The translations under genes were made by a program, and so were the position numbers. Positions 6,001 to 48,342 of a DNA stretch of 64,000 nt are shown piece by piece. This stretch comes from Phycisphaerales bacterium (lineage in GTDB: Bacteria > Planctomycetota > Phycisphaerae > WQYP01): positions 89,679 to 153,678 of the forward strand of contig DAIDJN010000041.1 of assembly GCA_027451365.1 (NCBI GenBank), written 5' to 3'. Each line of letters opens with the position of its first letter. The first letter of the stretch is position 1. Below the pieces are notes generated by a model that saw nothing but the letters and a program-made list of their open reading frames with translations, was not told the DNA's origin and made no database searches.

Positions 6001-7310
6001 GGGCGCAATTGAATATTCTGGTGCGGCAGTTTGCCGCAGGGGCCCAAGGCATTACCACGCCGGCCGGGGCCAGGGCTGCCGCCGCGCACATGCAGGAGGT
6101 GCTAACGGGCGCTTTTTCCAGACCCGGCTGGGCGAAACTTTCATCCAGTCCGCGATTGATCCAATTTCAGGAGGCCCTCGAAGGCATCTTAAAGGCGAAT
6201 CCGGCGCAAGCCCGCCAGCCGGCCGGGCCGGCTCTTGCCGGATGGAAACAGCAGAAACTTCCCAACCATGCCCGTCTGTTTACCAGTCCGTCCGGCCACC
6301 GGAAGTTGACCTTTGTTTTGCTGACGCCACCAGGACATAAACGATTTTATTTATGTACCACAGAACTAAGCGTGGGAATATTTCTTTCGGTGTTGAATTC
6401 CAGTTCCAGTTTAATCCATCGGCCATCCAATTCATTTTATAATCTGATCAAGCCGAACGGCAATTATTTCGGTCCGCATACCTGGGTATACCATCAAAGC
6501 GTCGGACAGGTTGAAATGGCCAAGTCCTGGTTTACGAACACCAATCAGATTTACAACGCGCCGCGCTATAGTTCGGCGCTGCAAGCCGCCGATGGCAAGC
6601 GTTTAAGCCCCGCCGCCGGTGGTCCGCCCCGGTCTGACGATCCGGTTAATTATCTGCCGCCGCAGGCGGCGGTTTATGTCGCGGCGCTGCTCGGTTGTCG
6701 ATTGCCAACGTCCGCTGAATGGCGGTATGCGTGGCGGGAAAAAGGCTCTGGCTCCCGGCCGCATCTGGCCGGCAAAACATTGGCCGGTTATGTGCAGTAT
6801 CTTAAACGTGTCAATTCATCGAAGGATGCCCGATTGCCCACTCCCCGTTACTGGGACCTTTATAATTATTCCGCCCCGGACCTGGCCGCATCGCTTCACT
6901 CATACGGTCCTTCGGCCAACCCGATTCTCTGGTTTGAACCGGTCAGCGGCGCGGCCCGGTCGCCTGCGTTTATACATTTGACCGGCAATGTGGCTGAATG
7001 GGTGTTTGACGATACCCAGGCATATTCCAAAGCGTTCAAGGGCTGGATCAAAACGCCCAAAGCCCTCAACAGCGGTGCTGTTCAGGCACTTTTCACACCT
7101 GCCGCTCTCAAAATGGTTTATGTGATTGGCGGGTCATGCCTTTCACCGCTGGGAAAAACCGCGCCGGACAAGCCGATCCCGATTAACTGGCACCTGCGGC
7201 GGACGCGAAGAGGCTTCGCGGATGTCGGCATGCGGCTGGCTTATCAACCGCGGGTGCTTACCCCGCAGGAACGCCTGGCGCAGCTGATTGGCGGCGATTG
7301 GTATTTCTAA
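3003..7310 (+). CDS. Large membrane-anchored protein: N-terminal degenerate Ser/Thr protein-kinase-like (pseudokinase) domain, one TM helix, long helical middle region, C-terminal FGE-sulfatase (SUMF1/formylglycine-generating-enzyme-like) domain
   Basis: Kinase catalytic-loop-like 'HGNLRAENIF' with the catalytic Asp replaced by Asn and no DFG motif. Subdomain IX-like 'SDDLAQLGRIICELV'. TM segment 'GIGITAALMLIAAVVAGYIHH'. C-terminal FGE motifs 'LPTSAEWRYAW' and 'HLTGNVAEWVFDD'. GTG start at 3003. Confidence 0.7.
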   Translation: MPNFGSYQTDRVTGRRADGSLHTLPDPSQCLLAFEPPADLLSPVRLHAAQSNFIARFDLQRTVAEGSTRWAKVFDLEPLEPSGAFCVMERLDWPLVRLIRLRVAPSPADLYRLVTEVLEALHDAQNLVGRSHGNLRAENIFASSGTLAEARIVLVAPRASVFNSTKAASDDLAQLGRIICELVASRRWTPTTPLDPGMAEFRQLGAIGRRWTEFCRFLLNTDIHADQRSIFSALTMAAKLKPRKSRAPMGIGITAALMLIAAVVAGYIHHRRTLEEMSRFNGAYSAYNTAWHGWFKAFTQNKKLLASVPEFSQVSAALKGGIVLSPNNILHEFTGLLSPAQIQKDLASHPHEAQRLGLAVVLLMRTERILGNIHGKLIHQQNQWNSRGWRRASADLYARGAAPVLPDQSMVPFLRLHSAAWAVNPDLRKLQLTPDGVSAAQWFRQIAAAGQVSGIWSQLSPVLKSFAADSHRSVASFDPYASRYLASASTPDILLMRQRQLLRVARRQATALARYGGSIRWDLVAALPPRNMQLPPDKYFPNLADYRVLAGNDNAYLRLKPQFTADAALVRSGIAHAMRLPKPPTVNYLAGLRVAERNFSRLSDHNLWIWKNRAILDKQAQSAIQRVQNLHQSVTAFINSQINVRKWVAQLLGLHLASQNYPVNPNALVISTIPAINAAYLAKVRRILFAPAPPPAMALEANVQSYNLLVSSLRPRRWRIPILTARITAVRNALTHILRKDFPAGLSDSAAQLSRPWNQQLLQAAILPARASAVRQAMRTLHWNDLTPQIQSSAVQSWLSRHKAFESLVINFNRIQDALNECRLLNASLPGGGSIARLYAQARANIWWTNAATARALAPQIALLRRLEQIHSAAIPALSVAWNRIIAAHPVQPLLIRAIWQRLGLVAPQPTANLMNLEHSLPDRLKAAIAADSQISAARKAALQHLLADQYRLRWQQRMNAAVGASQVNRTLVAAADYQITLSKAPGLTEFSTLSELRPRAQLNILVRQFAAGAQGITTPAGARAAAAHMQEVLTGAFSRPGWAKLSSSPRLIQFQEALEGILKANPAQARQPAGPALAGWKQQKLPNHARLFTSPSGHRKLTFVLLTPPGHKRFYLCTTELSVGIFLSVLNSSSSLIHRPSNSFYNLIKPNGNYFGPHTWVYHQSVGQVEMAKSWFTNTNQIYNAPRYSSALQAADGKRLSPAAGGPPRSDDPVNYLPPQAAVYVAALLGCRLPTSAEWRYAWREKGSGSRPHLAGKTLAGYVQYLKRVNSSKDARLPTPRYWDLYNYSAPDLAASLHSYGPSANPILWFEPVSGAARSPAFIHLTGNVAEWVFDDTQAYSKAFKGWIKTPKALNSGAVQALFTPAALKMVYVIGGSCLSPLGKTAPDKPIPINWHLRRTRRGFADVGMRLAYQPRVLTPQERLAQLIGGDWYF

Positions 7311-7461
7311 TCGGCGGCTGGCCGCTCTGGCCGACCGCCTGCCAATCTGATGCCCGACGTTCAGCGCGTCATCTTAGGCTTAATCTCGCCGCACGGTCGA
7401 ATAAATCGGTTGGAACCGGCAACCCGCTAATTTCAACGGTTAAATTCAGCTTTTCAGCAAT

Positions 7462-7535
7462 TGCGCCCGGCGGGAGTCGAACCCACAACCGTCCGCTTAG
7501 AAGGCGGATGCTCTATCCAGTTGAGCTACGAGCGC
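7462..7535 (-). tRNA. tRNA-Arg (anticodon TCT); CCA not encoded
   Basis: Reverse complement is GCGCTCGTAGCTCAACTGGATAGAGCATCCGCCTTCTAAGCGGACGGTTGTGGGTTCGACTCCCGCCGGGCGCA. It folds as a cloverleaf: 7-bp acceptor stem, D-arm GCTC..GAGC, anticodon loop CUUCUAA, T-arm GTGGG-TTCGACT-CCCGC. Confidence 0.9.
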
Positions 7536-7894
7536 TTCGGCTGCTTAAAATGTAAACGAAGCGGGGTGGCAAAGCCAATGGCGGGGTGGCGAACGCCGTG
7601 GAGCTATGCAAGCCAACCTCGCCGTTCCCTTTTTTTTGCCGCAGGCCAAAATATACGCCAACTCCGCAAAGCAGGAAAGGATGTGTGATTCGGTCCGCTG
7701 GCGGAACGATTGATCGCAGCTGCGCCGCGCTGCAAATAAAGTCGGTCCATCTGCCCGGAAACGCGATGATGCAATGGACTGGCGGCCCTGAATTTGCATG
7801 GCATTTCCGCTTCCCCACCATTCATTTTTTGTCCGCGTTGAAGTATACTTCTTAAGATTCGCTGGAGCGATATTCATGGCCAGGGAGTTGATAA

Positions 7895-9301
7895 ATGTTA
7901 TTGTCGCTGTCTGAAGATATGCTGGCGAATCCTTACCGAGTGATCGGTTTGCCCGCGGGTGCCGGACAGAATGATATCGACCTTGCCGTGCGGCGGATGC
8001 GAATATGGAAAAGCCCCGCGGACATTCCACCCACCCCATGGGATTTTCCCCAATTCGGTCCTGTTCCCCGCGAAAAGGCGGATTTGGAGCGGGCGGTCGG
8101 ATTGCTGATGAATCCGGCAACGCGGCTGGTGGCGCGAGCCTGGTGGTTTACCGCACTGCCAGGTGAGTTAAATACGGTCGCGGCTAAAACCGCCCCGGCG
8201 GCCGGCGTATCATTGCGTGCCTTGCAGGCCCATGACAAGGCGTTGACGTGTTTATTTGATCTGGCAAAAAAATCGCCGGATGTTTCCCGCAACCATTTAT
8301 CCTGGTGTGCGGCATTGGCCACTTTGGGCGTAAGCCTGCGTGCGGAAGATTATCTGCGCTGGTCGGCAGGCGTTGAGGTGACCGGAGCCGCCGAAGGTTT
8401 TGAAAAGGCCGCCAGTCCACAGGAAATAATGGATATACCCCAGTCATGGGCGTTGGCACTGTTGCCCAAACTGCGCAACTTCTGTCACAACGCGTACGAT
8501 GCCAGCGCGTTTGATCAGTCGGTTGCATTTATCCGTCTGGCCCAACAGACGAGTCGCGACCATCCGGAAGCCATGCATTTGCGGAGCACCATGCTGGAAC
8601 TTATGGAGCGCAATTTGCTAATCAATTGCCCGCGCGTACAGAATTTTATATACCACGGGATTCCATGGAAACGGTGGGAAAAAATTTTTGTTGGGCGAAA
8701 ATCCCGCCAGATATGTCGCCAGGCGGAGCAGGAGATTGAGCAGACGCTTTTACCTTTGTATCGGGCCTTCATCAAGCTTCAGGCACCGGAGTATCACGAC
8801 ACGCGAGCTGTACAAATCGCATTTAACGCGATGGTACGCAATATGGCCGTGGGCTGGTCGCACGTAGGCGCCACTGCCAATGCGCGCCGCTGGGGTGCCT
8901 TATTACAGTCGGAATCGCGACAACCTCTCACCGTGGGACGACGCTTGTTGATGAGTCTGCGGTCAAATCGAGTATCGTGGACAGTGTTAGGTGTCATCAT
9001 CCTGGGCGTTGCATCGAATCTGTTTAATCAATCGCCACGCGACACTTATTTTCCGCCCCGGCCCTATTACAATCCGGCCCTGCCCCATGCGCCGGCTCGT
9101 CAAAACATGCTCTCTGGCAATGCGCCTCAGCCTGCGGTCTCGGATGGCAATAAGGCTGCATTGCCATCTTACATCCGGCCACGCGCCTCACCACCTGACA
9201 TTTATCATCCACCGGTTTACTCTGGCGATACATCCCAATATCACCTGCCGCCAATGGGCGGCTGGGCACCGGCTGGTATATCACGACCTGGTGCCAGATA
9301 A
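7895..9301 (+). CDS. J-domain-like membrane protein with Pro-rich C-terminal tail (468 aa)
   Basis: GGAG RBS 7 nt before the ATG. N-terminus 'NPYRVIGLPAGAGQNDIDLAVRRMRIW' resembles J-domain helices II-III, but the HPD tripeptide is absent. TM segment 'VLGVIILGVASNLF' is followed by a proline-rich tail. It ends 32 nt before the Hsp70 paralogue. Confidence 0.55.
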   Translation: MLLSLSEDMLANPYRVIGLPAGAGQNDIDLAVRRMRIWKSPADIPPTPWDFPQFGPVPREKADLERAVGLLMNPATRLVARAWWFTALPGELNTVAAKTAPAAGVSLRALQAHDKALTCLFDLAKKSPDVSRNHLSWCAALATLGVSLRAEDYLRWSAGVEVTGAAEGFEKAASPQEIMDIPQSWALALLPKLRNFCHNAYDASAFDQSVAFIRLAQQTSRDHPEAMHLRSTMLELMERNLLINCPRVQNFIYHGIPWKRWEKIFVGRKSRQICRQAEQEIEQTLLPLYRAFIKLQAPEYHDTRAVQIAFNAMVRNMAVGWSHVGATANARRWGALLQSESRQPLTVGRRLLMSLRSNRVSWTVLGVIILGVASNLFNQSPRDTYFPPRPYYNPALPHAPARQNMLSGNAPQPAVSDGNKAALPSYIRPRASPPDIYHPPVYSGDTSQYHLPPMGGWAPAGISRPGAR

Positions 9302-12332: not shown

Positions 12333-13493
12333 GTGCGGAGGTGCGGTATGGAAATGCGTTGGTGTGTATTTTCCGGTCTGACTTTGGCTGTCTGGGGCGC
12401 TCAACCGACCTTGGCGGTAACTGCAAAGGCAACAACCGCGGGGCCGAGCGATGCGGCATTTTCCAACAATTCCGGCGGAGTGGTCAATGTGGCCGCTTAT
12501 AGCGAAGCCGCGGGAATTATGAATGCCTCGGTTACGCCGTCGGAAACGCTTGGCGGTGCCACAGTTCCAGTGGCAAGTTCTTCTTACGGCGTCGGCATTA
12601 CGAGCCAGGCAATAGCAGTTCCCGGCCCGATGAAAGTAAACCAGTTCGGATATTTGCGGCAAAGCTATACATTTCAGAAGCCCGTTGCCCAGATTAAACC
12701 TGTGAACAAAAGTTTACTGAGTTTCCCCGGCGATCAGGTTTCCATCACCTCGGAAACGGAGGGTTACACCGGTTTTGCGCAGGTCGAAAATGTCACCAAC
12801 CCTTTAACCGGCCAGGTTACTCCCCGTAATGCCGTGATCGCCGAGGCCAGCGTGCCCGATGGTGAGGTTCCTCCGGGTGATGCCGGCGCGCTTGCTGGCG
12901 ATCCGATTTCCATCCCAACAGGTACCTACAATTACAACCCCACAATTAGTTGCTCAATAACCGACAACACTTCCGGCGATGAGGCTGTGGCGCAGACTTA
13001 TGCGGTTGATGCATCCACGTTCACGTCCGATTCGCTGGACAATTTCGGGCTTGACGGCATGCCCCTGTCCCAAACGCTGTGGTATGTCACGGTGGGGGAG
13101 GCGGGGCCAGTGACCAGCGCCGGTTCGCTGGCGAAACTGGAGATTGATTTCGAGCTTAATCCGCTGGCGCTTAAGGAAATTACACTTCCGCAATCGTTTC
13201 TCAATTCCCTGCCGGCCTTTACAACTACCGCCCAGGAAATCGCGGAAATAAATCAGGCCGTCGACAACGCCATCGCCAATGGGATGGCGTTCAGTGGAAA
13301 TCAGGAAACGCTCAACGGATTCGATCCGTTTCCTGTCGGCACTACCTACAGCCCGCTTTCCAATAACCAGGCTTATGGAGACGGAGCCGCCGCCGAAGTG
13401 GCCGCTCCAGTGCCAGCTTCCATCTGGCTGATGGGATTTGGAACTTTGGTTCTGCTGACGCGGAAATCGCAGACTCGTATAAAGTGTTCCTGA
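12333..13493 (+). CDS. Secreted protein with PEP-CTERM-like sorting tail (variant VPAS)
   Basis: Signal peptide. C-terminus 'APVPASIWLMGFGTLVLLTRKSQTRIK' has a PEP-like motif, a hydrophobic helix and a basic cluster. Confidence 0.55.
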   Translation: MRRCGMEMRWCVFSGLTLAVWGAQPTLAVTAKATTAGPSDAAFSNNSGGVVNVAAYSEAAGIMNASVTPSETLGGATVPVASSSYGVGITSQAIAVPGPMKVNQFGYLRQSYTFQKPVAQIKPVNKSLLSFPGDQVSITSETEGYTGFAQVENVTNPLTGQVTPRNAVIAEASVPDGEVPPGDAGALAGDPISIPTGTYNYNPTISCSITDNTSGDEAVAQTYAVDASTFTSDSLDNFGLDGMPLSQTLWYVTVGEAGPVTSAGSLAKLEIDFELNPLALKEITLPQSFLNSLPAFTTTAQEIAEINQAVDNAIANGMAFSGNQETLNGFDPFPVGTTYSPLSNNQAYGDGAAAEVAAPVPASIWLMGFGTLVLLTRKSQTRIKCS

Positions 13494-14208: not shown

Positions 14209-14685
14209 ATGTTTGGTCGAAGCTGCGTGAAATCATGCCTTCTTGTTCTGGGCATTGCCGCGGTAACCTGTGGTATCACAGGTTCGCTGGAGGCGGCTTA
14301 TCAGATCGCCGCAACGGGGCGTGTGACGGGCATTTTTCATTTTGATTCTTGGCGAGCGCCCGCCAGGGCGAAAAAAATCACCAATCCAATCCCCCTTACT
14401 CCGGCCTCGGTACAGGCCGGCGAAGTGGTGTACACGCAAAATTGTGTCGCATGCCACGGGGCCAATGCACAGGGAGACGGGCCGACTGGGGCGTTTTTAT
14501 CGCCGCACCCGGCCAATTTGACCAAAGCCAGCTTCTGGGCGCAAGGCGAAGGTGCCATTTTCTGGAAAATCAGCCATGGACACAGCCCGATGCCGGAATT
14601 TGCCGATTCATTAAGCCGCAAACAGCGCTGGAATGTCATCAATTATCTGAAGAAAAATTTTGATCCAGCCGGGGCGGGGAAGTAA
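14209..14685 (+). CDS. Class I c-type cytochrome (mono-haem), secreted
   Basis: Signal peptide. Haem-binding motif CVACH (CxxCH). GGAG RBS. Confidence 0.75.
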   Translation: MFGRSCVKSCLLVLGIAAVTCGITGSLEAAYQIAATGRVTGIFHFDSWRAPARAKKITNPIPLTPASVQAGEVVYTQNCVACHGANAQGDGPTGAFLSPHPANLTKASFWAQGEGAIFWKISHGHSPMPEFADSLSRKQRWNVINYLKKNFDPAGAGK

Positions 14686-14728: not shown

Positions 14729-16093
14729 ATGAGACGTAGTACCCGAGTCGCGATGTGCCTCGCACTGGGACTGGCGGCATTGCCAGTTGCCGGTCTGCGT
14801 GCGGACCCGACCACCCAGCAGAAGTACGATGCCCTGAAAGCTCAGATGGCCGCCATGGCCCGGCAGATGGCTTCCATGCAGAAGCAAATGGCCGCGATGA
14901 AAAAGCAGCAGGCCGCAATGGCCGCTTCCACTCAATCCACCGATCAGAAAGCCATAGATCGATCTGTTCGCAGGCTCTACAAAAAGGTCATGAAGGAAAG
15001 TCAGAAGATTAGCGCTTTGGAACCTGGAAACATTCAGGTGCTCATTGCCGGCGATGTGAATTTTCAGTTTCAGCATCAGCAGGGCCATGCCTCTACCTTT
15101 TACGCCGATTCCAGCCCGATGATTCAAGTTCGTGTGGATAAGAATATTTTTATCAACACCGCGTTCGATTTCTATACCCAGTCCGGCGGTGCCGGCGGCG
15201 TCAATTCCGACATTGGTGCCGCGAACCTGAATTATGAATTAAATGATAATATAACCCTTGGCGGTGGTCTCATCAGCAGCCCCATCGGCGGGATTGTGGG
15301 TATATATAATCCCGCACCGTGGAACAGGTGGGTTGTGGATGGCTCCTTGGAAGACAATCTGCTTCCCCCAAATGAACTCGGCGTCTGGGCTCGAGGCGGT
15401 GTTCCGGCTCCCAACAATCTCGGCTATCTGACTTATTTTCTATTTGCCAGCAACGGGCCGGCATCTACCTCGACCAACGGAACCGCCAATAGCGCCGGTT
15501 CGTACAACTCTTATACTGGACTTAATTACGGCAATTGGAATCCGGCGGCACAAAACGGCAAGGCCATTGGTGGCCGCGTCAGCTATCTGCCCATTCCCAA
15601 TATCGAAGTCGGATATTCTTTTGAATATGCCCGTCCCAGTGCCGATGGCAGTCCGGTTACCATTAACTCGCTGGTACAGGCCGTGGATTTCAACGCCTAT
15701 TATGTCAACAAAAAAATTGACGGGCTGTTCCGCGTACGGGGTGGCTGGACCTGGGATCAGGTCGGTCAAGGCCTGGTCGTGGCCAATGCTTCGGGCGGAT
15801 TCAGCAGTCTTGGCGGCGATTCCAACGGCGGCCAGATCGAATTTGCCTATCAGCCGTCCATGTGCGGTATTAAATATCTCAATCGTGTCATGGCGGCGTT
15901 CCGTTACGACAGGATTGATGGTCCTGTTTCTCAGGCGCTTAGCGGTTCAGACCACGAACAGCGTTACACCTTCGGCCTGGATTACTGGTTGCATTCCAAC
16001 GCGGTTCTCAAATGCGAGTATGAATTTGATAACCTGTCCGGTGGCCAGCACGGTGCTGACGCCGTATTTATGCAGTTTGCGGTTGGTATCTGA
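14729..16093 (+). CDS. Outer-membrane beta-barrel/porin-like protein with N-terminal coiled-coil (454 aa)
   Basis: Signal peptide. Met/Gln/Ala-rich coiled-coil stretch (QKQMAAMKKQQAAMAAS). Then Gly/Asn/Tyr/Ser-rich alternating pattern typical of beta-barrels. Located between two cytochrome c genes. Confidence 0.5.
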   Translation: MRRSTRVAMCLALGLAALPVAGLRADPTTQQKYDALKAQMAAMARQMASMQKQMAAMKKQQAAMAASTQSTDQKAIDRSVRRLYKKVMKESQKISALEPGNIQVLIAGDVNFQFQHQQGHASTFYADSSPMIQVRVDKNIFINTAFDFYTQSGGAGGVNSDIGAANLNYELNDNITLGGGLISSPIGGIVGIYNPAPWNRWVVDGSLEDNLLPPNELGVWARGGVPAPNNLGYLTYFLFASNGPASTSTNGTANSAGSYNSYTGLNYGNWNPAAQNGKAIGGRVSYLPIPNIEVGYSFEYARPSADGSPVTINSLVQAVDFNAYYVNKKIDGLFRVRGGWTWDQVGQGLVVANASGGFSSLGGDSNGGQIEFAYQPSMCGIKYLNRVMAAFRYDRIDGPVSQALSGSDHEQRYTFGLDYWLHSNAVLKCEYEFDNLSGGQHGADAVFMQFAVGI

Positions 16094-16132: not shown

Positions 16133-16483
16133 ATGAAGATGTTCCCGGCATTTCATTTCGTAAAGGCCGCCACAATCGGTCTTGCAGTCGCGACCGCGGT
16201 AAGTCTGGCGGGTTGCAGCGGATCTTCACCCAAGCAGACCACCGCCGCCAAAAAACCGTTACCGCCTCACCCTATGTTCACGTTCAAGGATCCGGCTGAC
16301 AATGAATCCGGTGCCCAGATATGGTCGCAAAACTGTATGCGATGCCATCAACTTCGCTCTCCGGCTCAATACACGCCCGCTCAATGGGGTGTCATTGTCC
16401 AGTACATGCGGCTAAAGGCTGGCCTTACCGGTGAACAGGCCAAAAAGGTGCTGGCCTTTTTGCAAAGTGCCAGTGCGCATTAA
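16133..16483 (+). CDS. Lipoprotein c-type cytochrome (116 aa)
   Basis: Lipobox 'SLAGC|SGS'. Haem motif CMRCH (CxxCH). Confidence 0.7.
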   Translation: MKMFPAFHFVKAATIGLAVATAVSLAGCSGSSPKQTTAAKKPLPPHPMFTFKDPADNESGAQIWSQNCMRCHQLRSPAQYTPAQWGVIVQYMRLKAGLTGEQAKKVLAFLQSASAH

Positions 16484-16554: not shown

Positions 16555-16604
16555 CGTGGCCGGCTGCGGATTGCAGCTTCCGTGGTCGGCCACGATTTTT
16601 TATT
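16555..16604 (+). terminator. Rho-independent terminator after the cytochrome operon
   Basis: GC-rich stem CGTGGCCG...CGGCCACG followed by ATTTTTTATT. Confidence 0.5.
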
Positions 16605-16744: not shown

Positions 16745-17254
16745 TTATATTCTTTGATCTGTGTCCAGATCGGACCCGGACCACACCGCTCCGGCTGCCG
16801 ATGCGACGCCGGCTCGCAAAGCTGGATCCATTCTTCTTCCACTGATGATTTCCGGTATCAGTTTGCGGGTCGGCAAATCTGCCAGCGGCGTGCGCCGACC
16901 GTGGCCCGGCCGGTGCGAATGCCGCAGCCGGTTGTATTTAGCGTCATTGGCCGCTCGCACCAGAGCTTTTTCGCCAATGTCGGTCACAGCGACCAGCCGC
17001 CCTTCCATAAGAATGGACGCATAGTCGTCAAGTTGGTCGCTGTAGCTGTCAATTTCAAAACAGACCTGATTATTGACCGAAAGAATGTCCCCTTTACGTC
17101 CGGTCATGGGTACCCGAAGATACAGGCACCCATTTACAAAACAGAACGGAAGTGGAATGGCGTATGGCCGGCCATCGGGATGCGCCAAGGCCAGCCTGCC
17201 GATAAGGGTGTTATTCAGCATGTCGGCGATCTGGTCGTGACTCATGGGAATCAT
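16745..17254 (-). CDS. Pyridoxamine 5'-phosphate oxidase-like (PNPOx/FMN-binding split-barrel) family protein
   Basis: 169 aa. Pattern 'LIGRLALAHPDGRPYAIPLPFCFVNGCLYLRVPMTGRKGDIL...VCFEID' is typical of the PNPOx-like fold. Divergent from the radical-SAM pair. Confidence 0.65.
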   Translation of the reverse strand: MIPMSHDQIADMLNNTLIGRLALAHPDGRPYAIPLPFCFVNGCLYLRVPMTGRKGDILSVNNQVCFEIDSYSDQLDDYASILMEGRLVAVTDIGEKALVRAANDAKYNRLRHSHRPGHGRRTPLADLPTRKLIPEIISGRRMDPALRAGVASAAGAVWSGSDLDTDQRI

Positions 17255-17357
17255 AAAATTTTATCCCTTAAAAATTTTGTCTGGAAGCAGAATGCGAGTT
17301 TAGAATCCGGCGCAGCCGGTGTCAATGCCGCCACGTGGAGTCCGCAGGAGTCGCATC

Positions 17358-18485
17358 ATGGTAATGCTTAAAACGGATCGCACGACAATCAGCCCCGGCG
17401 GCCTGAATTATAGCTCCGCCGATTTTGCCCACTCACCGCTGGTGGTATTTTATGAGGTCACCCGAGCCTGCAATCTACTTTGCCGCCATTGTCGCGCCGA
17501 AGCTCAGCCACACCGGCATCCGGAGGAACTTGCGCCCGCCGCATCGTTGCGGTTGCTTGATGCGCTGGCCACGTTTTCCAAGCCGCCGCTGGTGGTGCTT
17601 ACGGGCGGTGACCCGATCAAGCGTGCTGATATATTTGATATTGTGACCCATGGTGTTTCCCTTGGCCTGAAAATGGCCATGACGCCCTCCGCCACCAAGC
17701 TGGTCACGACCGATGCGGTGGGCCGTCTGAAGGTCGCGGGACTGCACCGTCTGGCTGTAAGCCTGGATGGTGCCGATGCGGCGCGTCATGACGATTTCCG
17801 CCGTGTGCCGGGCAGCTTTGCCCGCACACTGGAGATTATGAATGATGCCCGCAGTTGCGGTCTTTCCATGCAGATCAACACTACCATCACGCGGCACAAT
17901 GTGGATCAGATTGATGAAATGGCCGATCTGTTGGACGGCTTTGGCATCGCGCTCTGGTCGGTATTTTTTTTAGTTCCCACGGGCCGGGCGGATATCAGTC
18001 AGCGCATCGCCCCTGAACAATATGAACAGGTATTTGAAAAGTTGCATAATTTTGCGGGCCGGCATCCCTACGCCGTCAAAACCACTGAAGCGCCCCATTA
18101 TCGCCGCTTTGTGCTTGAAAAGCAGCGGCTGGGCGGCACTTCCGCGCCTGGTGGTCAGGGGCTGGCGGCCAATATCGTCGGCACAAATGACGGCAAAGGT
18201 GTCATGTTCATCAGCCACCTCGGTCAAATATTCCCCACCGGCTTTCTGCCCATTGAATGCGGCCGCTTCCCGGCACATTCCCCCGTGGACGTTTACCGGA
18301 ATTCTCCCTTGTTCAAGGACCTGCGCAACCCCAATAAACTGCAGGGCAAATGCGGCTTCTGCCAATACCGCGATATTTGTGGCGGCAGCCGCGCCCGTGC
18401 CTTTGGGGTTACCGGCAATCCGCTTGCCGCCGAGCCAGACTGTGTGTACGTTTCGCCAAACGCGCCATCTCTAAGGAGTGTTTAA
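17358..18485 (+). CDS. Radical SAM enzyme with C-terminal SPASM domain (AhbC/AhbD/NirJ family)
   Basis: CxxxCxxC 'CNLLCRHC' near the N-terminus. Cys-rich SPASM 'CGFCQYRDICGG' at the C-terminus. AGGAG RBS before the ATG at 17358. Confidence 0.8.
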   Translation: MVMLKTDRTTISPGGLNYSSADFAHSPLVVFYEVTRACNLLCRHCRAEAQPHRHPEELAPAASLRLLDALATFSKPPLVVLTGGDPIKRADIFDIVTHGVSLGLKMAMTPSATKLVTTDAVGRLKVAGLHRLAVSLDGADAARHDDFRRVPGSFARTLEIMNDARSCGLSMQINTTITRHNVDQIDEMADLLDGFGIALWSVFFLVPTGRADISQRIAPEQYEQVFEKLHNFAGRHPYAVKTTEAPHYRRFVLEKQRLGGTSAPGGQGLAANIVGTNDGKGVMFISHLGQIFPTGFLPIECGRFPAHSPVDVYRNSPLFKDLRNPNKLQGKCGFCQYRDICGGSRARAFGVTGNPLAAEPDCVYVSPNAPSLRSV

Positions 18486-18486
18486 T

Positions 18487-19696
18487 TATGCTTAGTGTAA
18501 CCAACCTGCTTTGTGATTTCGATGGCGGCAATGAACGTCTGCGGTATGGTCACCGCAATTCCGTCGGCGAAAGTCAGGAGGTGCCGCGGCCTGTGGTGGT
18601 CTGGGCCCTTACCAAAGCCTGTAATCTGCGATGTGTCCATTGTTACGCCTCGGCCAATGCGCGGCCCGCGCCCAATGAACTCACCCTGACGGAAGGCTTA
18701 AACCTTCTGGATGATCTGATAAAGTTCAAGGTTCCCGCGGTGCTTTTCAGCGGTGGCGAGCCGCTGGTGCGTCCGGAGGCGCTGGAATTTATCCGCTATG
18801 CCCGTGCTGGCGGCCTGGCATGTACACTTTCCACCAATGGTCTGCTCATAGATGACTCGATGGCGGAGCGTCTGGCTGACTCGGGATTAAAATATATAGG
18901 TATAAGCATGGATGGACTTCGTGAACGGCACGACAAGCTGCGCGGGCACGCGGGTGCCTTTGACGGCGTGCTTCGCGCCATCACTCACTGTCGGGCACGC
19001 GGCATAAAAGTCGGTTTGCGCTTCACAGTGCACAGCCTGAACATGCAGGATTTGGGCGCGGTGTTTGATATATGTGTTCAGTACGACGTGCAGCGGTTGT
19101 GCATTTATCACCTGGCTTACAGTGGCCGTGGCGGCAACATGCAGAAGGTGGATCTTTCCGCTGCGCAAACCCGCCATGTGGTGGATCGAATATTTGCCCG
19201 CAGCAGGGAATTGCACAAGGCCGGCATTCCCCTTGAAGTTTTGACTGTCGACAACCATGCCGACGCCGCTTATTTGCTGCTGCAGTTGGAGCAGACCGAT
19301 CCCCACCGTGCGCAGAAAGCTCGCCAGCGGCTGGTCGGTACCGGTGGCAATCGTTCCGGCTGCAATATCGCGGCCATTGATCCGGTTGGAAATGTGCATT
19401 ACGACCAGTTCAGTTGGCATTACAATTGCGGCAACATTCGAACTGAACCATTCAGCAAAATCTGGTCCGACGCAAAGGACCCGCGTCTGGCAGTGTTGCG
19501 AAACCGCCATACCCATCTTCCAATGCGCTGTCAGGCGTGCAGATTTCTTTCGGTGTGCAATGGAAATTTGCGTACCCGCGCCGAGGCTGCCACCGGCGAT
19601 TGGCTCGGCTTTGATCCGGGCTGCTATTTAACCGATGAAGAAATTTCCCCGCGCCAGCCCCAGGAATGTGCAGCCGTGGCACTGGTGCGGGACTGA
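18487..19696 (+). CDS. Second radical SAM/SPASM enzyme (AhbC/AhbD/NirJ family), translationally coupled
   Basis: 'CNLRCVHC' radical-SAM motif. SPASM 'CQACRFLSVCNG'. GGAG RBS. Start is 1 nt after the upstream stop. Confidence 0.8.
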
Positions 19697-20046: not shown

Positions 20047-20275
20047 ACTATTGGCTCAAAGCAGGATGGAGCTGTTCGATTGAGCAGATATTGCGCAAAA
20101 GTGGGGCCGTGATATTTGGCGACCATTTGGTCGAGATCGAATTTGTCATTTCACGGACGGATTTAGGTTAGTCGGCCGGATAAGCGGGAACATTGTCGCC
20201 CGAGCCTGTTTGCAGACCGCCATTTTCAAGCGGTCCGGGCTGGGGAACTAATTCTTGGGATGGAGTGGCAATCGT

Positions 20276-21227
20276 GAAAAAAAATCCATTTCTTCAGGTT
20301 GGGCTGTTGCTGGTTGCGGGCGGAATTGTCGGGCTTTCCGGACGGAGCGTCGCTCGGGCTAACTATTTCAATGGATTTGAGTCCTCTGGCAGCACCAGCA
20401 CGGATTTCTCCGGACCAGGTCCGGGGTTCGTGCCAGGCTCGAATAACTATACCCCCGGCGCCGACATTAGTCGCGTACAATCCGGAGGTGGATCGCTTGG
20501 CCTTACCGCCGCGTCGGGCAACTATTATGCGGAAATCACAAATGTCCCCGACACATACCAACCGGGCTATGGCCAGTCAATCGCTACCTCCTTCGGTGGA
20601 TACCAGCAGAACTACACTGGCAGCTTTACCGAGTCGGTGGATATTTATGTAAATGTTGCTGGCTGGGCTGCGAGCACTGGGGCGAGCCAAGGATTCCAGT
20701 TGGATGCATCCCCGAGCAATAATCTAACCGGAAGCGCCGCATACAACACCTATTCCTCCACCCCGAACGGCCCTAATCAGGGCGATGAGACACAATTTTA
20801 TGTAAACGCCACGGGTACAGGTGCTACCGCCCAAGTAAACGTTTCGGGTGAAATTAATGCGTCGAACGGCGGATCGATTGCGACCATCGGTCAATCCGGT
20901 TGGTACAATTTCGCGGTCGATTTTGCCAAGGGCTCGGGCGGCTACGTGCAGAATACCTTTTCTGTATCGACCCTTTCCGGTTCACAACTCGGGTCATATA
21001 CCGCGACATCTTTGTTGCCTAACAACTTGCTCGGTGGAAACAACTATGGGACTTGGTTTGAGGGCTGGATAAACGGCTTTGCTGGAAACACGATTGGCAT
21101 TGATAATGTGCAATTGACTTACGTGACGCCGCTTCCCGCCGCGTTTTGGCCTGCAGCTTTGACCCTTGCCGGGATGGGCATTGCGGCCGGACTCCGGCGG
21201 CGAGCACCGAACAAATGCTCGCAATAG
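20276..21227 (+). CDS. Secreted Gly/Ser/Thr/Asn-rich protein with PEP-CTERM-like tail (variant PLPAA)
   Basis: GTG start. Signal peptide 'VKKNPFLQVGLLLVAGGIVGLSGRSVARA'. C-terminus 'TPLPAAFWPAALTLAGMGIAAGLRRRAP'. Confidence 0.55.
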
Positions 21228-21374: not shown

Positions 21375-21794
21375 TCACAACTTTTTCCGCCGACGGGATG
21401 CTGGCTTGGCGAACGTGTGCATCCATGCCGTTGCGTCCGCTTTGTTCAATTGGCCGTCCGCGACGCCAAGACCAATGGCGATGACATCGTCATCAGTGGC
21501 GATGATGTCGAACCCGTTGTTGTCCAGGAATATCATTGCCGCCAGTACTGCACAACGCTTGTTTCCATCATGAAAGGCGCGCGCCTGGCAGATATGAAAC
21601 AGATAAGCCGCAGCCATGGCCGGAATATCCGAATGCAGATACTGGCTACCGAAGGATGCCTGTGGCATCATAACGGCAGATTCAAGCAGGCCAGGATCGC
21701 GGATGCCCGCCAGTCCGCCGTGGCCGCCCAAGGCATCGTCATGGATCGCCACAACTTCATCGACCGAAAGAAATAAAGGTTCAGTCGCGCTCAT
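21375..21794 (-). CDS. doc: Doc (death-on-curing) / Fic-fold toxin
   Basis: Fic/Doc core motif 'FHDGNKRCAVLAAMIFL' (HxFx(D/N)GNKR). Overlaps the upstream antitoxin gene by 4 nt. Confidence 0.8.
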   Translation of the reverse strand: MSATEPLFLSVDEVVAIHDDALGGHGGLAGIRDPGLLESAVMMPQASFGSQYLHSDIPAMAAAYLFHICQARAFHDGNKRCAVLAAMIFLDNNGFDIIATDDDVIAIGLGVADGQLNKADATAWMHTFAKPASRRRKKL

Positions 21795-22024
21795 TTGGCC
21801 AGTTCCGCCAGGGCGCGACTATAGCGCGTACGAAACTTGGCCAGCGATTTGAGCAGCCGTTCCTTTCCGATTCCCGTCTTCGCCGGCGTGATAATCAGTC
21901 GCGATCCGTCCACCGTTATCTGCACCTGGTCGCCAACCTTCCAGCCGGTAAGGCTCAGGAGTGTGTTGTCCAGCGGAATGCAACTGCCGTTGCCGACTTT
22001 GCGGATTTTTTTGACCAGACTCAT
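21791..22024 (-). CDS. AbrB/MazE/Phd-type antitoxin (SpoVT/AbrB swapped-hairpin domain)
   Basis: 77 aa, 'KKIRKVGNGSCIPLDNTLLSLTGWKVGDQVQITVDGSRLIITP'. Immediately upstream of Doc and overlapping it. Confidence 0.65.
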   Translation of the reverse strand: MSLVKKIRKVGNGSCIPLDNTLLSLTGWKVGDQVQITVDGSRLIITPAKTGIGKERLLKSLAKFRTRYSRALAELAK

Positions 22025-35070: not shown

Positions 35071-36246
35071 TTATGGAGAGGCGTTGTCCGGGGCACGCAT
35101 GTCATCCGGGTTCAGACCCACGCCGCGGCACCATTCCTGGTAGGCCGCGGGGGCAATTTCGCTGGGTTTTATTTCGCTTCGCCCGCCCCAGAACACATTG
35201 GTGTATGCGATTGGAATGCCCGTGGATTCAAGGTGCCGGTCAATGGCCGCCTTGTGGGCCAGGATAAGGTTTTTGTCTTTGCCATGGGCGACTCCCATGA
35301 CGTTGACATTTCCGAATTCCGGTCCGCCTTCACGCCAGTAGGCATGTGTCATTATATGGAAACGTCCCACTTCGCATCCAGCTTCAATTTCCCGTCCGGC
35401 GGGAACCGCCCAGTGAAACAGAGCGTTGTATTGCGTGACCTTGTCGCCGGTGGGAAGCGTTTTGACATGTTCCAGAAATGTGGAAAAGCGGCCAATCACG
35501 CCGAGCGTATGGAGGTCGGCCGCGACTTGAAAAAAATGATCCAATGACATGCCGATTTCAGCGGCGCGCGGCAGCCAGATATTTTGACAAATTTCAGCCG
35601 GCGCAAATTCACGCTTCAATGCCACCAGCACCTGCCATTGTTCATCGGTCAATGTGACCACCGTCGTGGGGATGGCTTCGGCCGGAACGTCCGCTTTGCT
35701 GCCGGGTTCAAGCCCGCGCCGGCGGACATGGCCCACGCCCAGCGCGAACAGCCGTTTGGCCGGCATTAACTTGAAGGAAACCGCGCCGATTCGCTGCTGC
35801 AGGTAACGGCAATGCTTTTCCAGTGAATATCCCTGCGGAACCTTCAGTGTTGTCCAGAGCCGGTATTTTGATCCTGTGGTCTGGCCATCGGTACTGCGAA
35901 TGACCACATGACCGGAAAACGGGTCCTGTTGAAAAAGGTAATCAAAAGCCGCGTTGAGTTTTTCCGCCGGCACTTCCCACGCCACCAGGCAGCCTTCCGC
36001 AAGGCTGGTGGCCAGCAGCGTCTGTCGCACGCGGCGCACCACGCCGCCGCGCAGCATGGCGGTAATGCGCTCGATAACCGTATTGGTTTCCAACCCAGCC
36101 ATGTTGGCGATTGCGCTGATCGGGTCGGTTTGAAAGCCCTGGATTTTGTCCTCTGAAACGGCAAGGATTCGGGCATTGATCGCATCGTGAATGTCGATGG
36201 GAATCTGCGCCTCAGAGGCCGGCGATGGAATGGTTGAACTGGTCAT
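35071..36246 (-). CDS. Candidate siroheme decarboxylase (fused AhbA/AhbB or NirD/NirL-like; tandem Lrp/AsnC-like halves), tentative
   Basis: Two AsnC-type HTH-like halves ('DAINARILAVSEDKIQ...VIERITAMLRGGVVRRV' and 'LTDEQWQVLVALKREF...'). 'YRLWTTL' resembles the NirD/AhbA 'NLWF(V/T)L' block. Start trimmed to the ATG at 36246 to avoid overlap with the next gene. Confidence 0.35.
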   Translation of the reverse strand: MTSSTIPSPASEAQIPIDIHDAINARILAVSEDKIQGFQTDPISAIANMAGLETNTVIERITAMLRGGVVRRVRQTLLATSLAEGCLVAWEVPAEKLNAAFDYLFQQDPFSGHVVIRSTDGQTTGSKYRLWTTLKVPQGYSLEKHCRYLQQRIGAVSFKLMPAKRLFALGVGHVRRRGLEPGSKADVPAEAIPTTVVTLTDEQWQVLVALKREFAPAEICQNIWLPRAAEIGMSLDHFFQVAADLHTLGVIGRFSTFLEHVKTLPTGDKVTQYNALFHWAVPAGREIEAGCEVGRFHIMTHAYWREGGPEFGNVNVMGVAHGKDKNLILAHKAAIDRHLESTGIPIAYTNVFWGGRSEIKPSEIAPAAYQEWCRGVGLNPDDMRAPDNASP

Positions 36247-36292: not shown

Positions 36293-36835
36293 TTAATAAT
36301 TGGAACCATCATGACGAATATGCACCACGGGGCGGGCGTTGTCGTCATCACACAGGCCGCCCTGTATGGCGGTGCCGATTATCAGCTCATGGTCGGTTTT
36401 GAAATTCACACGCTGGTGCATGTCGCACCATATCCAGGCGCAGGCTTCGGTCAAAATCATTCCGCCGTTGTCCAGTCGGCGCGTTTTAACACCTTCAAAC
36501 GCGGAATCACCGGTCAGGCGCTGTCGGGCATATTTTCGCATCAGGCTTTTATCCCCGGCATGACAGACGTTTAACGCGAATCCACCTGTGTGTTGAATAA
36601 CATCCGCAATTTCGCGATCGCGGTGAATGGCGACCCCAATACAGATCGGCTCGCGGCTGAGCTGCTGAACGAATGAAACCAGCATGGCCGAGGCGTCGGG
36701 TCCGTGGCCGGTGGTGAGAATAAAAATACCACTGGGAATTTTACCAACCGCTCGGAAAAGCGGCAAAATAGGTTCAACGGTGCTGTCAATAATCACTGAA
36801 TACTCCAAAACAGTTCCGCCGCAACAGGCTTCCAA
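36293..36835 (-). CDS. Flavin reductase-like (FMN-binding split-barrel, HpaC/NtaB family) protein
   Basis: 'IFILTTGHGPDASAMLVSFVQQLSREPICIGVAIH' matches the flavin reductase domain pattern. Confidence 0.55.
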   Translation of the reverse strand: MEACCGGTVLEYSVIIDSTVEPILPLFRAVGKIPSGIFILTTGHGPDASAMLVSFVQQLSREPICIGVAIHRDREIADVIQHTGGFALNVCHAGDKSLMRKYARQRLTGDSAFEGVKTRRLDNGGMILTEACAWIWCDMHQRVNFKTDHELIIGTAIQGGLCDDDNARPVVHIRHDGSNY

Positions 36836-45875: not shown

Positions 45876-46586
45876 TTATGGGCGCGGTGGATTGGATTTA
45901 ATCTTATTCGTATCAAGTGTGACCGCGCCATGCCGGGCCAGGGCGCCGCCATCCTGAATTGACGCACTGTTCATTATGATAATATCCGTGGTGGCAAGAA
46001 TGGTGCCTTCAAATGCGCTGTCCGCCCCAAGGGTGGCCGAACTTCCCACCTGCCAGAACACAAAATTCCTTGGCTCAGATCCATTGCCACGGTTAATGGA
46101 AATAACGGCTGATTTGGTGCCGGTGGTCAGAGTTGTCCCGATCTGAAATACAAACTGGGCTTTTTTATTGCCTTGGCAGTCAAGTGTGAGTATCCCGTTG
46201 AGAGTTGCCAACGACGAAAAATAATATACCCCGGGCAGCAGCGTTAACCCGCCCAGGTCCTGGCCGCTTAAATCGTGGGTCGGTTTCATCCCCTGAACCG
46301 CTTTGTAAGCGGCGGTAAGATCAATATGCGCTTTGCGGGCGACATCATCGGCCATTCGCTTGGCATGGGGCGATAAGACAATACCCGGCGGGAAGCCGGT
46401 GATATCCTCGCTGTGACTGGTTCCCACATGGCCTCCATGCACCGCGGTATCGCCGGTATTCGTGACCGCGGTACCGCCCAACACCGCAAAATTGGCGGCG
46501 GAATCTAAAATAAATTGAACCGGCGCGTGCAGCGGAAGCGTGCCCAACGGTGCAACCACCAGCATAACAAGTGTTTTATTTACCAT
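45876..46586 (-). CDS. DUF3494 (ice-binding-protein-like beta-helix) secreted protein
   Basis: AAGGAG RBS. Signal peptide. 'AANFAVLGGTAVTNTGDTAVHGGHVGTS...ITGFPPG' matches the DUF3494/IBP family start. Confidence 0.7.
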   Translation of the reverse strand: MVNKTLVMLVVAPLGTLPLHAPVQFILDSAANFAVLGGTAVTNTGDTAVHGGHVGTSHSEDITGFPPGIVLSPHAKRMADDVARKAHIDLTAAYKAVQGMKPTHDLSGQDLGGLTLLPGVYYFSSLATLNGILTLDCQGNKKAQFVFQIGTTLTTGTKSAVISINRGNGSEPRNFVFWQVGSSATLGADSAFEGTILATTDIIIMNSASIQDGGALARHGAVTLDTNKIKSNPPRP

Positions 46587-46978
46587 GGCCAATTCTCCTT
46601 TTTCACACACCGCCGCGTGGGGATGTGCGAATATGGCGCGACTGATCTTCGGTTGGGCATCGTGGAGAACGAGCTAAAGGAAAGCTGGATTCCGGGTGGG
46701 CGTCGGGGCGACTCATGCCAAGGTTTCTAAACCAACCCGCGCGAGCCGTGCGACTTCAAGCGGCCATGCTCTAGCACACTTGAATTATCAGTATAGCAGC
46801 AATTGGCGTACCGTGGTGGATTTGGTTAATTATTTTTAAAGATAGGCGGGCGGCTATCACACAGCCGGACACATAAACCGGTCAATATCAGGAAAGTCCG
46901 GATATACCTGACTTTAGTTTCTGCAAAGCCGGGGTGCTTATTGTCCGGGAATCGTCAATTTTGCCCAATTCATTCGAA

Positions 46979-47797: not shown

Positions 47798-48342
47798 TGG
47801 TCGCCTCCATTTACTTTTGTCGCCGGGTGGCGATACCAAAAGGTCGCATTTAAATAAAAAGCTGGAAGCCCTATAATTAGCCCGCCCCGCTTTTATATGT
47901 CCCAGCCATCCCGTTGAGATTGCCGAAATGATGACTAATCTCGATTACTATGTGTATGCAAACCATGTGCCGTGTTGGGTAAATCATTAAGTTGACTGAA
48001 TTCATAAAAGTTCTTGCGATCTTGGGGCTGCTTGCCGAGATTCAGTTACAGATGCGACGCAGAGGGGGCGGCAATAACGCCGCCGCCGGACATAATGTCG
48101 CGGACATTTTGTCCCAGTCGGTTGGCGAATTGCGTAAACAGGCAGAAAATTGCTGGCCAAATAATATTATTGCCAAAGGTATGGATATTGCATGGTAGTA
48201 CGTGGGGTTGTTCACGATTTTATTAATTGCGTCCCATTTTTTACCTGCGCAGAGCGTTCGGGTTGGGCGTCAGCCGCGTTCGCCAAGTCTCATTGGCTTG
48301 CTTGTAGGTGCAAAAAGACAAGATTGACCGCGGCTCGGTTGG

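Follow-up and report, generated by a model that had tools for sequence, protein, structure and literature searches.

Organization of the locus

Two adjacent radical S-adenosylmethionine (SAM) genes, here termed rSAM1 and rSAM2, were analysed in a 64,000-nucleotide stretch of a Phycisphaerales bacterium genome (contig DAIDJN010000041.1; hereafter the window), which has a GC content of ~55% and whose closest relatives are metagenome-assembled genomes (MAGs) of Planctomycetota. A contig near-identical to the window is present in GCA_021852225.1 (L097, JAJZOA010000269.1), and rSAM2 shares 80% identity with a protein of the MAG ZJ4.bin39 (L006). The original prediction, made from the sequence alone, had described the two genes as a translationally coupled ahbC-ahbD tandem for haem synthesis from sirohaem. 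The pair is present as predicted, head to tail on the + strand. The rSAM1 gene (17358..18485, +), encoding a candidate AhbD-type radical SAM haem synthase, lies in an open reading frame (ORF) at 17319-18485 (+) that opens with a GTG at 17319; its probable true start is the ATG at 17358, which is preceded by AGGAG at 17346-17350 and gives a protein of 375 aa, the length also called for the gene in L097. The rSAM2 gene (18488..19696, +) encodes an AhbC/NirJ1-like radical SAM enzyme, a candidate didecarboxysirohaem deacetylase (Fe-coproporphyrin III synthase). Its listed ORF opens at 18350, and the real start is the ATG at 18488, giving 402 aa up to the end at 19696. Two nucleotides separate the TAA stop of rSAM1 (18483-18485) from this ATG, and direct reading of the sequence finds a Shine-Dalgarno AAGGAG for rSAM2 at 18472..18477 (+), within the 3' end of rSAM1; these two features make translational coupling plausible. 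The adjacency in the original prediction is thus borne out and the coupling itself is plausible, as are the two enzyme types, with the order reversed: the AhbD-like gene precedes the AhbC-like one.

Family placement and motifs of the two enzymes

The profile comparison proposed with the original prediction, covering AhbC, AhbD, NirJ, PqqE and MftC, was carried out with NCBIfam models and places the proteins in tetrapyrrole branches (433 and 445 bits), away from the PqqE and MftC models (89-135 bits). rSAM1 scores 433.4 bits against TIGR04053, above the equivalog cut-off of 395, with residues 35-378 aligned to positions 2-365 of the 366-position model; the next-best profiles are AhbD (TIGR04545, 323.2 bits, cut-off 500, not reached) and NirJ2 (194 bits). 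Relatives of rSAM1 in three other loci (L001, L002 and L004) score 440-459 bits against TIGR04053. By profile match and tree position, rSAM1 is a member of this family. rSAM2 is matched over the full model length by NirJ1 (TIGR04054, 444.8 bits, cut-off 650), AhbC (TIGR04546, 423.7 bits, cut-off 650), TIGR04347 (400 bits, cut-off 525) and NirJ (TIGR04051, 377.8 bits, cut-off 515), and its orthologue in L004 behaves similarly (AhbC, 418 bits; NirJ1, 429 bits). E-values of 1e-127 to 1e-133 for both proteins exclude a chance match. Profiles of peptide and cofactor maturases are weak for the pair (MftC, 119-135 bits, cut-off 265; PqqE, 89-104 bits, cut-off 381; sactisynthases, likewise no more than 135 bits), so the match to peptide-modifying SPASM families that would have spoken against the original prediction was not found, no maturase model exceeding 135 bits. 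What stands of the predicted AhbC/AhbD-like tandem is its membership in the AhbD/NirJ2 and AhbC/NirJ1/NirJ branches; assignment to the AhbC and AhbD equivalogs themselves does not.

The radical SAM motif CX3CX2C of rSAM1 is formed by C51/C55/C58 and is conserved in 97-98% of 63 aligned sequences (the window protein and 62 relatives). Its C-terminal motif reads C345-X2-C348-X5-C354-X2-S357-X17-C375, with the four cysteines present in 100% of the same sequences, and C314 is the sole further conserved cysteine (94%). rSAM1 therefore carries the combination used to recognize AhbD, namely CX3CX2C together with a C-terminal CX2CX5CX20-38C (PMC10452713); it does not carry the eight-cysteine SPASM arrangement with both AuxI and AuxII, an invariant Ser357 replacing the fourth cysteine of CX2CX5CX2C. 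Serine in place of the AuxI cysteine is reported for the AhbDs of non-methanogenic archaea (PMC10452713), and the reduced motif of rSAM1 matches this pattern. In rSAM2, CX3CX2C corresponds to C45/C49/C52 and a C-terminal CX2CX5CX21C to C348/351/357/379, with Asn360 at the position of the fourth cysteine; the same CX2CX5CX21C is carried by NirJ (PMC10548856). Taking both proteins together, 97-100% of 62-69 relatives retain the motif cysteines. The C-terminal SPASM cysteine cluster predicted for each protein is hence real as a cluster and falls short of a full SPASM domain, being a reduced, one-cluster form in both (Ser357 in rSAM1, Asn360 in rSAM2); the Pfam SPASM model gave no match in rSAM1 and stayed just below threshold in rSAM2. 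Sequence conservation of rSAM2 is high: 111 of its 402 residues are conserved in ≥97% of sequences, and from Phycisphaerae to Armatimonadota and Ardenticatenaceae its relatives share ~70% identity. Some of them are labelled Fe-coproporphyrin III synthase in JGI annotation.

A phylogenetic placement, likewise proposed with the original prediction, was obtained by neighbour joining (NJ). The rSAM1 clade has as its sister the reference TIGR04053 proteins, which come from Thermus, Bacillus and Halogeometricum (bootstrap 87%), and the group that these form together has a firmicute NirJ2-like protein as its own sister (84%). A separate clade (95%) contains rSAM2 with its relatives and lies outside the NirJ clade, which unites three proteins named by the Prokaryotic Genome Annotation Pipeline (PGAP) with 100% support; a reference NirJ scores 606 bits on the NirJ model. 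A search of the PDB returned no AhbC, AhbD or NirJ structure, the best matches being BlsE, PqqE and SkfB at E ~1e-15.

The closest archaeal relative of rSAM2 is a TIGR04347 'pseudo-SAM/SPASM' protein encoded on the Haloferax gibbonsii plasmid pHGLR1 (L091, 4624-8958). Upstream of its gene an 'Htur_1727 family rSAM-partnered candidate RiPP' (ribosomally synthesized and post-translationally modified peptide) is annotated, and ric and a norB-like gene follow. Haloarchaeal TIGR04347 proteins may be either haem enzymes or peptide maturases.

Genomic context of the TIGR04053 family

TIGR04053 has been left without a functional name by NCBI, and on plasmids its members are found in haloarchaea, Thermus, Deinococcus and Bacillus. 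On plasmid pHBOR02 of Halogeometricum borinquense the gene order is nirK, norB, a helix-turn-helix (HTH) gene, two DUF2249 genes, TIGR04053 and halocyanin. In Haloferax volcanii, ahbD is HVO_2144, which lies near nirK (HVO_2141), halocyanin (HVO_2145) and norB (HVO_2147); deletion of HVO_2144 abolished anaerobic growth, which was restored by protohaem (PMC5746218). The TIGR04053 neighbourhood on pHBOR02 reproduces this published layout, and this synteny suggests that TIGR04053 is the type of AhbD found in haloarchaea, Thermus and Bacillus.

In Thermus an Rrf2 gene, norB and nirS precede TIGR04053 in that order. On a plasmid of Thermus thermophilus JL-18 (L090, 7297-10556) a lone TIGR04053 gene lies between cd1 nitrite reductase and cytochrome c genes; an AhbC-like partner is absent, and none of nirDLGH, nirF and nirN is found near it. 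In Bacillus mycoides the TIGR04053 gene adjoins the anaerobic ribonucleotide reductase genes nrdDG. According to a 2026 review, AhbD is found in facultative Gram-positive bacteria devoid of other enzymes of the alternative haem biosynthesis (AHB) pathway (PMC13564367). Going by synteny, TIGR04053 is presumably the AhbD type of those bacteria.

Conservation and neighbourhoods of the pair

In GTDB genomes, 75 loci with an rSAM2 relative were collected, 69 of which contain enough upstream DNA for pairing to be judged. In 66 of these 69 the rSAM2-like gene is immediately preceded, on the same strand, by an rSAM1-like gene, at a median distance of 30 nt. The paired loci come from Phycisphaerae and Tepidisphaerales, from Chthonomonadales and Capsulimonadaceae (Armatimonadota), and from Ardenticatenaceae (Chloroflexota). 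Genomes with the pair include those of Poriferisphaera sp. WC338 (NZ_CP194516) and strain ZRK32 (CP066225) and the Ardenticatenaceae MAG JAOSJS01. The genes around the pair differ among relatives and, since the surroundings vary beyond it, the pair behaves as a self-contained module. Three clusters of neighbours (1, 2 and 4) were left out as antisense artefacts of greedy longest-ORF calling in GC-rich DNA.

In several relatives the pair lies beside genes of tetrapyrrole synthesis. In an Ardenticatenaceae locus (L004) the order is hemA, hemC, cobA/hemD and hemB, followed by a gene for a ChdC-Rieske-AhbA-AhbB fusion and then rSAM1 and rSAM2. The fusion (6641-8854), situated between the hem genes and the rSAM pair, is a 737-aa protein with a ChdC/HemQ-like part, a Rieske part, AhbA and AhbB; no description of such a fusion was found in the haem-pathway literature searched. 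Because ChdC is fused here to AhbAB beside the pair, the arrangement suggests one trunk from sirohaem to coprohaem served by two alternative last enzymes, one aerobic and one anaerobic. A fused AhbAB gene also directly follows the pair in L058, a MAG of Planctomycetota. The decarboxylases of L004 and L058 exceed the AhbA/AhbB cut-offs of 140/125 bits, scoring 270/263 and 254/232 bits, respectively. hemA directly precedes rSAM1 and rSAM2 in L053 and lies nearby in L032. A plasmid of Paenibacillus polymyxa carries the same three functions in the order NirJ1-like, NirJ2-like and AhbAB.

Other neighbours recurring in relatives are RIC/ScdA (7 loci), NnrS-DUF1858 (7), Rrf2 (6), a Nar-like molybdenum enzyme with a NarJ-like chaperone (4) and hemerythrin (3). 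These neighbours, related to anaerobiosis and nitric oxide (NO), have the same flavour as those around the reference TIGR04053 genes. One locus (L073, 4602-12294) contains Rrf2, NnrS/DUF1858 and PNPOx genes divergent from RIC(ScdA), rSAM1, rSAM2 and hemerythrin, and clusters of this NO/anaerobiosis type likewise surround the pair in L041, L042, L045, L024, L034 and L077. Genes for Nar-like molybdenum enzymes lie near the pair in L041, L068, L069 and L077.

A divergent NirDL/AhbAB-fold protein in the window

The original prediction had named a fused AhbAB/NirDL-like candidate 15 kb from the pair, encoded at 35071..36246 (-). Its scores on the AhbA (NF040708, 46.6 bits, cut-off 140) and AhbB (NF040707, 63.8 bits, cut-off 125) models miss both cut-offs, compared with 225-270 bits for canonical fused AhbAB proteins, and tBLASTn with canonical AhbAB and NirDL queries does not detect it. 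A phmmer search matches it to NirDL (4ch7) with an E-value of 1.6e-12. Its AlphaFold2 (AF2) model has a mean predicted local distance difference test (pLDDT) score of 81 and is matched by Foldseek to NirDL (4ch7, E 1.2e-17; 4czc, E 2.7e-17; TM 0.76 over 361 columns), followed by AhbA/B chains. On this model, the protein has the two-lobed NirDL/AhbAB fold. All 40 family members compared share two histidines, one per lobe (His113 and His301), which align with those of the canonical GVSHNY and VSHCY motifs. His113 and His301 may correspond to the two essential histidines named in the title of a 2014 paper by Haufschildt et al. The predicted fold therefore stands, with one histidine per lobe, and assignment to the AhbA/AhbB equivalogs does not (47/64 bits against 140/125).

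Members of this family are ~376 aa long and ~70% identical across Verrucomicrobiota, Phycisphaerae and Methylomirabilota, with insertions of their own and a conserved C-terminal extension (NVFWGGRSEIKPSEI). The gene mostly stands alone; a Flavin_Reduct (split-barrel) gene precedes it in close relatives and also in the window, where that gene lies directly upstream at 36293..36835 (-) (PF01613, 97 bits), and the same two-gene order is found in L085 and L086. The protein may be the sirohaem decarboxylase of this lineage.

The PNPOx gene, the cytochrome cassette and other features of the window

As predicted, a PNPOx-fold gene lies divergently to the pair (16745..17254, -), encoding a flavoprotein of the Pyridox_ox_2 family (PF12900, 50 bits). 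The speculation that this protein is a haem-binding one of the HugZ/HutZ type found no backing: its weak NCBIfam matches are Nim reductases, and a PDB search up to E 1 gave no HugZ or HutZ match, the nearest structures being uncharacterised FMN-binding proteins (2hq9, 3u0i and Rv2991) and a Nim-like protein. The PNPOx gene is divergent beside the pair in 12 of the 75 loci, and in a thirteenth (L077) it lies ~6 kb downstream, all of them from Planctomycetota; in L073 it is co-oriented with the NnrS and Rrf2 genes. This recurrence and co-orientation point to a place in the same stress/anaerobic regulon rather than to haem degradation. When a shared regulator site was sought in the region between PNPOx and rSAM1, a CCTTGATATCCAGAATATA-like stretch was present in some relatives and none was found in the window.

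Upstream of the pair, beyond the PNPOx gene, lies a three-gene cassette. It comprises a mono-haem c-type cytochrome with a CVACH motif (14209..14685, +; Pfam Cytochrome_CBB3 and Cytochrom_C), an outer-membrane porin (14729..16093, +) and a small c-type cytochrome with a CMRCH motif and a lipobox-like LAGC signal (16133..16483, +), for which the matches to cytochrome c551/Cytochrom_C are weak. The porin has 454 aa with an N-terminal coiled coil of ~70 aa and no Pfam or NCBIfam match; its AF2 model (pLDDT 74) is matched by Foldseek to OmpC, OmpU, OmpM1 and OprP with E ~1e-11. The cassette is closed by a strong, intrinsic-terminator-like hairpin (16555..16594, +), a 16-bp stem followed by a T-run, which separates it from the PNPOx and rSAM genes. 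The cassette is found, whole or in part, beside the pair in 9 of the 75 loci, all from Planctomycetota and in either orientation. The two c-type cytochromes in the original prediction are thus real, and their being fed by the pathway is a matter of neighbourhood only, because the cassette accompanies so few loci, in either orientation and with its own terminator.

Rfam and tRNA scans of the window returned a single tRNA-Arg, distant from the locus. Just downstream of the rSAM pair a Fic/Doc-family gene (21375-22024, -) and a 77-aa ORF overlapping its start likely form a toxin-antitoxin pair. Two proteins without a family match (12333-13493 and 20193-21227), each with a C-terminal hydrophobic stretch and basic tail resembling a PEP-CTERM signal, flank the cytochrome/rSAM region. 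Further away lie two neighbouring paralogues encoding secreted Ice_binding-like (PF11999) proteins (45876-47839, -) and a type II restriction-modification pair (55507-57098, -), in which a BglII-type endonuclease gene lies beside an N6/N4 DNA methylase gene.

Proposed function of the pair and alternative explanations

Based on family placement, motifs, conservation of the pair, and the sirohaem decarboxylase and hem genes found beside it in relatives, the pair is likely an AhbD-type plus AhbC-type module for anaerobic synthesis of haem b from sirohaem. In the proposed pathway, sirohaem would be decarboxylated to 12,18-didecarboxysirohaem, from which rSAM2, as the AhbC-type enzyme, would remove two acetate side chains to give Fe-coproporphyrin III (coprohaem); rSAM1, as the AhbD-type enzyme, would then oxidatively decarboxylate two propionates of coprohaem to vinyls, yielding haem b. 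Both radical SAM steps would be independent of oxygen, and the two enzymes are probably co-translated. In each, the [4Fe-4S]/SAM cluster at CX3CX2C would generate the 5'-deoxyadenosyl radical, and a single C-terminal auxiliary [4Fe-4S] cluster (CX2CX5CX20-21C) would carry off the electron. By analogy with the contexts in relatives, the module probably provides haem under anoxic or nitrosative conditions; RIC and hemerythrin as neighbours would make sense, since each enzyme would carry two [4Fe-4S] clusters. What the two enzymes act on, their use under anoxia, their regulation and the protein that would supply didecarboxysirohaem here are inferences. The core of the original prediction, haem synthesis by the Ahb route, thus finds support in the tetrapyrrole families of both enzymes and in the AhbAB and hem genes adjoining the pair in relatives.

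Several points weigh against this reading. Neither protein reaches the AhbC (650) or AhbD (500) equivalog cut-off, and rSAM2 lies under the cut-offs of all four related models. It is about equidistant from NirJ1-like, TIGR04347 and NirJ proteins (38-46% identity), and the deep order of NirJ, firmicute NirJ1-like, haloarchaeal TIGR04347 and rSAM2 clades in the NJ tree is poorly supported (bootstraps 13-32), the references in that tree being PGAP-named, plasmid-borne proteins and not the characterised AhbC and AhbD of Methanosarcina barkeri and Desulfovibrio vulgaris. Canonical AhbAB adjoins the pair in only 2 of the 75 loci (L004 and L058). The window was scanned by tBLASTn with canonical AhbAB, NirDL, hemB, hemC, cobA/hemD, NirS, NirF and NirN as queries, and its large ORFs with Pfam and NCBIfam profiles; canonical AhbAB, sirohaem synthase and other hem genes were absent from its 64 kb, and no ChdC was seen. 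The divergent NirDL-like family may serve another role, since its phyletic spread overlaps that of the rSAM pair only in part: its listed members include Verrucomicrobiota and Methylomirabilota, and both phyla are absent among the top 120 matches of rSAM2. We infer the orthology of HVO_2144 to TIGR04053 from synteny, not from the sequence of HVO_2144 itself.

One alternative is a mixed module, in which rSAM1 is an oxygen-independent, AhbD-type decarboxylase of coprohaem that serves as a backup of ChdC in a coproporphyrin-dependent route, a role already suggested in Gram-positive bacteria, and rSAM2 is a third AhbC/NirJ type that performs a different reaction on a tetrapyrrole side chain, possibly with the NirDL-like protein and split-barrel flavoproteins. 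The separate clade of rSAM2 (95%), its position below every equivalog cut-off and its extreme conservation (~70% across phyla, with 111 near-invariant residues) would suit such a type, as would the occurrence in Thermus and Bacillus of TIGR04053 genes that have no AhbC-like partner, of AhbD in organisms without other AHB enzymes (PMC13564367), and of PNPOx beside the rSAM pair and Flavin_Reduct beside the NirDL-like gene. This is nonetheless unlikely, for the rSAM2 clade adjoins canonical AhbAB in L004 and L058, as expected of a consumer of didecarboxysirohaem, its pairing with an AhbD-type enzyme in 66 of 69 loci fits a producer of coprohaem, and some of its members carry the JGI label Fe-coproporphyrin III synthase. 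It is a rather slim prospect, specifically, that rSAM2 and its ~70%-identical relatives are a non-AhbC third type which, with the NirDL-fold decarboxylase and PNPOx/Flavin_Reduct proteins, carries out an undescribed side-chain chemistry or acts on an undescribed substrate; this would make an NO- or anoxia-induced variant of the sirohaem branch with AhbD- or ChdC-type terminal enzymes.

Synthesis of haem d1, in which rSAM2, as a NirJ orthologue, would take propionates off didecarboxysirohaem to supply a cd1 nitrite reductase whose gene lies elsewhere in the genome, is very improbable. The NirJ model matches rSAM2 over its full length (378 bits), identity to PGAP-named NirJ proteins is ~39-42%, the pair lies near nitrate-reductase-like and NO-response genes in relatives, and a TIGR04053 gene follows nirS in Thermus. 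The NirJ score is below 515, however, and the NirJ clade (100%) excludes rSAM2. tBLASTn with NirS, NirF and NirN (from L088) found none of them in the window or within 10 kb on either side in the fetched loci, while nirS, nirF and nirN are all adjacent in the reference nir cluster; the AhbD-type partner has no role in d1 synthesis, and the pair of L004 adjoins hemA/C/D/B and ChdC. That the two enzymes are SPASM-type maturases of a peptide or cofactor, with no relation to tetrapyrroles, is scarcely credible. Both have SPASM/Twitch-like C-termini, and the related haloarchaeal TIGR04347 pseudo-SAM proteins have a partner annotated by NCBI as a candidate RiPP; yet the peptide-maturase models score 80-135 bits, far under their cut-offs, the 2-nt gap leaves no space for a precursor gene, a conserved small ORF beside the pair was not seen across the loci, and the contexts that recur are those of hem and AhbAB genes.

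Relation to known systems and significance

Compared with the AhbDs of M. barkeri (Mbar_A1458), D. vulgaris and H. volcanii (HVO_2144), rSAM1 shares both cysteine motifs, has TIGR04545 as its second-best profile (323 bits) and shows the serine-for-cysteine exchange at AuxI of the non-methanogenic archaeal enzymes; the anaerobic and denitrification genes around its relatives recall those around H. volcanii ahbD. It differs in scoring below the TIGR04545 cut-off, in lacking the full eight-cysteine SPASM motif that M. barkeri and D. vulgaris AhbD possess, and in its position, in Planctomycetota, Armatimonadota and Chloroflexota, as the first gene of a tight pair whose second gene is AhbC-like. 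rSAM2 resembles AhbC (Mbar_A1793, D. vulgaris) and firmicute NirJ1 in its full-length match, equal length, N-terminal extension, radical SAM motif and C-terminal cluster, in its AhbD/NirJ2-type partner and in the adjacent sirohaem decarboxylase of relatives. Unlike them, it belongs to a separate clade with 42-46% identity to firmicute NirJ1-like and haloarchaeal TIGR04347 proteins, and the gene order is D-like then C-like, whereas it is C-like, D-like and AhbAB on the Paenibacillus plasmid. With NirJ it shares the superfamily, the CX2CX5CX20-21C motif, ~40% identity and the presumed substrate didecarboxysirohaem; it differs in having an AhbD-type partner and no nirS, nirF, nirN, nirE or nirDLGH context.

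The protein encoded at 35071-36246 is like AhbA/AhbB and NirDL (4ch7, 4czc, 4czd and 4un1) in its two-lobed fold of HTH and ferredoxin-like barrel with a histidine in each lobe, and unlike them in its sub-cut-off scores, insertions, C-terminal extension and gene setting, mostly alone or behind a flavin reductase gene. The ChdC-AhbAB fusion beside the pair in L004, together with the anaerobic and NO-related neighbours, is reminiscent of the dual terminal route of H. volcanii, with AhbD used anaerobically and ChdC/PitA aerobically, although the hosts here are bacteria.

In current reviews the AHB route to haem is assigned to archaea and sulfate reducers, and some Gram-positive bacteria are said to have no AHB enzyme but AhbD (PMC13564367, PMC11306076). 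The present locus and its 66 paired relatives point to a broader distribution. Our literature searches found nothing on TIGR04053 or on AhbC together with AhbD in Planctomycetes, and the text of a haem-auxotrophy survey contained no per-phylum statement for these groups. The pathway and its chemistry are already known, and automated KEGG Orthology (KO) annotation labels some members. What is modestly new is the broad occurrence and conservation, across Planctomycetota, Armatimonadota and Chloroflexota, of a putative complete module with AhbC-type and AhbD-type enzymes, the suggested link between TIGR04053 and AhbD function, and the finding that both enzymes escape the curated AhbC/AhbD thresholds.

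The module appears widespread and strongly conserved in Phycisphaerae/Tepidisphaerales, Armatimonadota and Ardenticatenaceae, often among nitrate and NO genes, and it bears on how these facultative or anaerobic heterotrophs may make haem without oxygen. It also bears on the scoring of 'haem auxotrophy' in genome surveys, the AhbC/AhbD thresholds being reached by neither enzyme or not applying to it. If the proposed reading is true, TIGR04053 would gain a function, that of an AhbD-type haem synthase.

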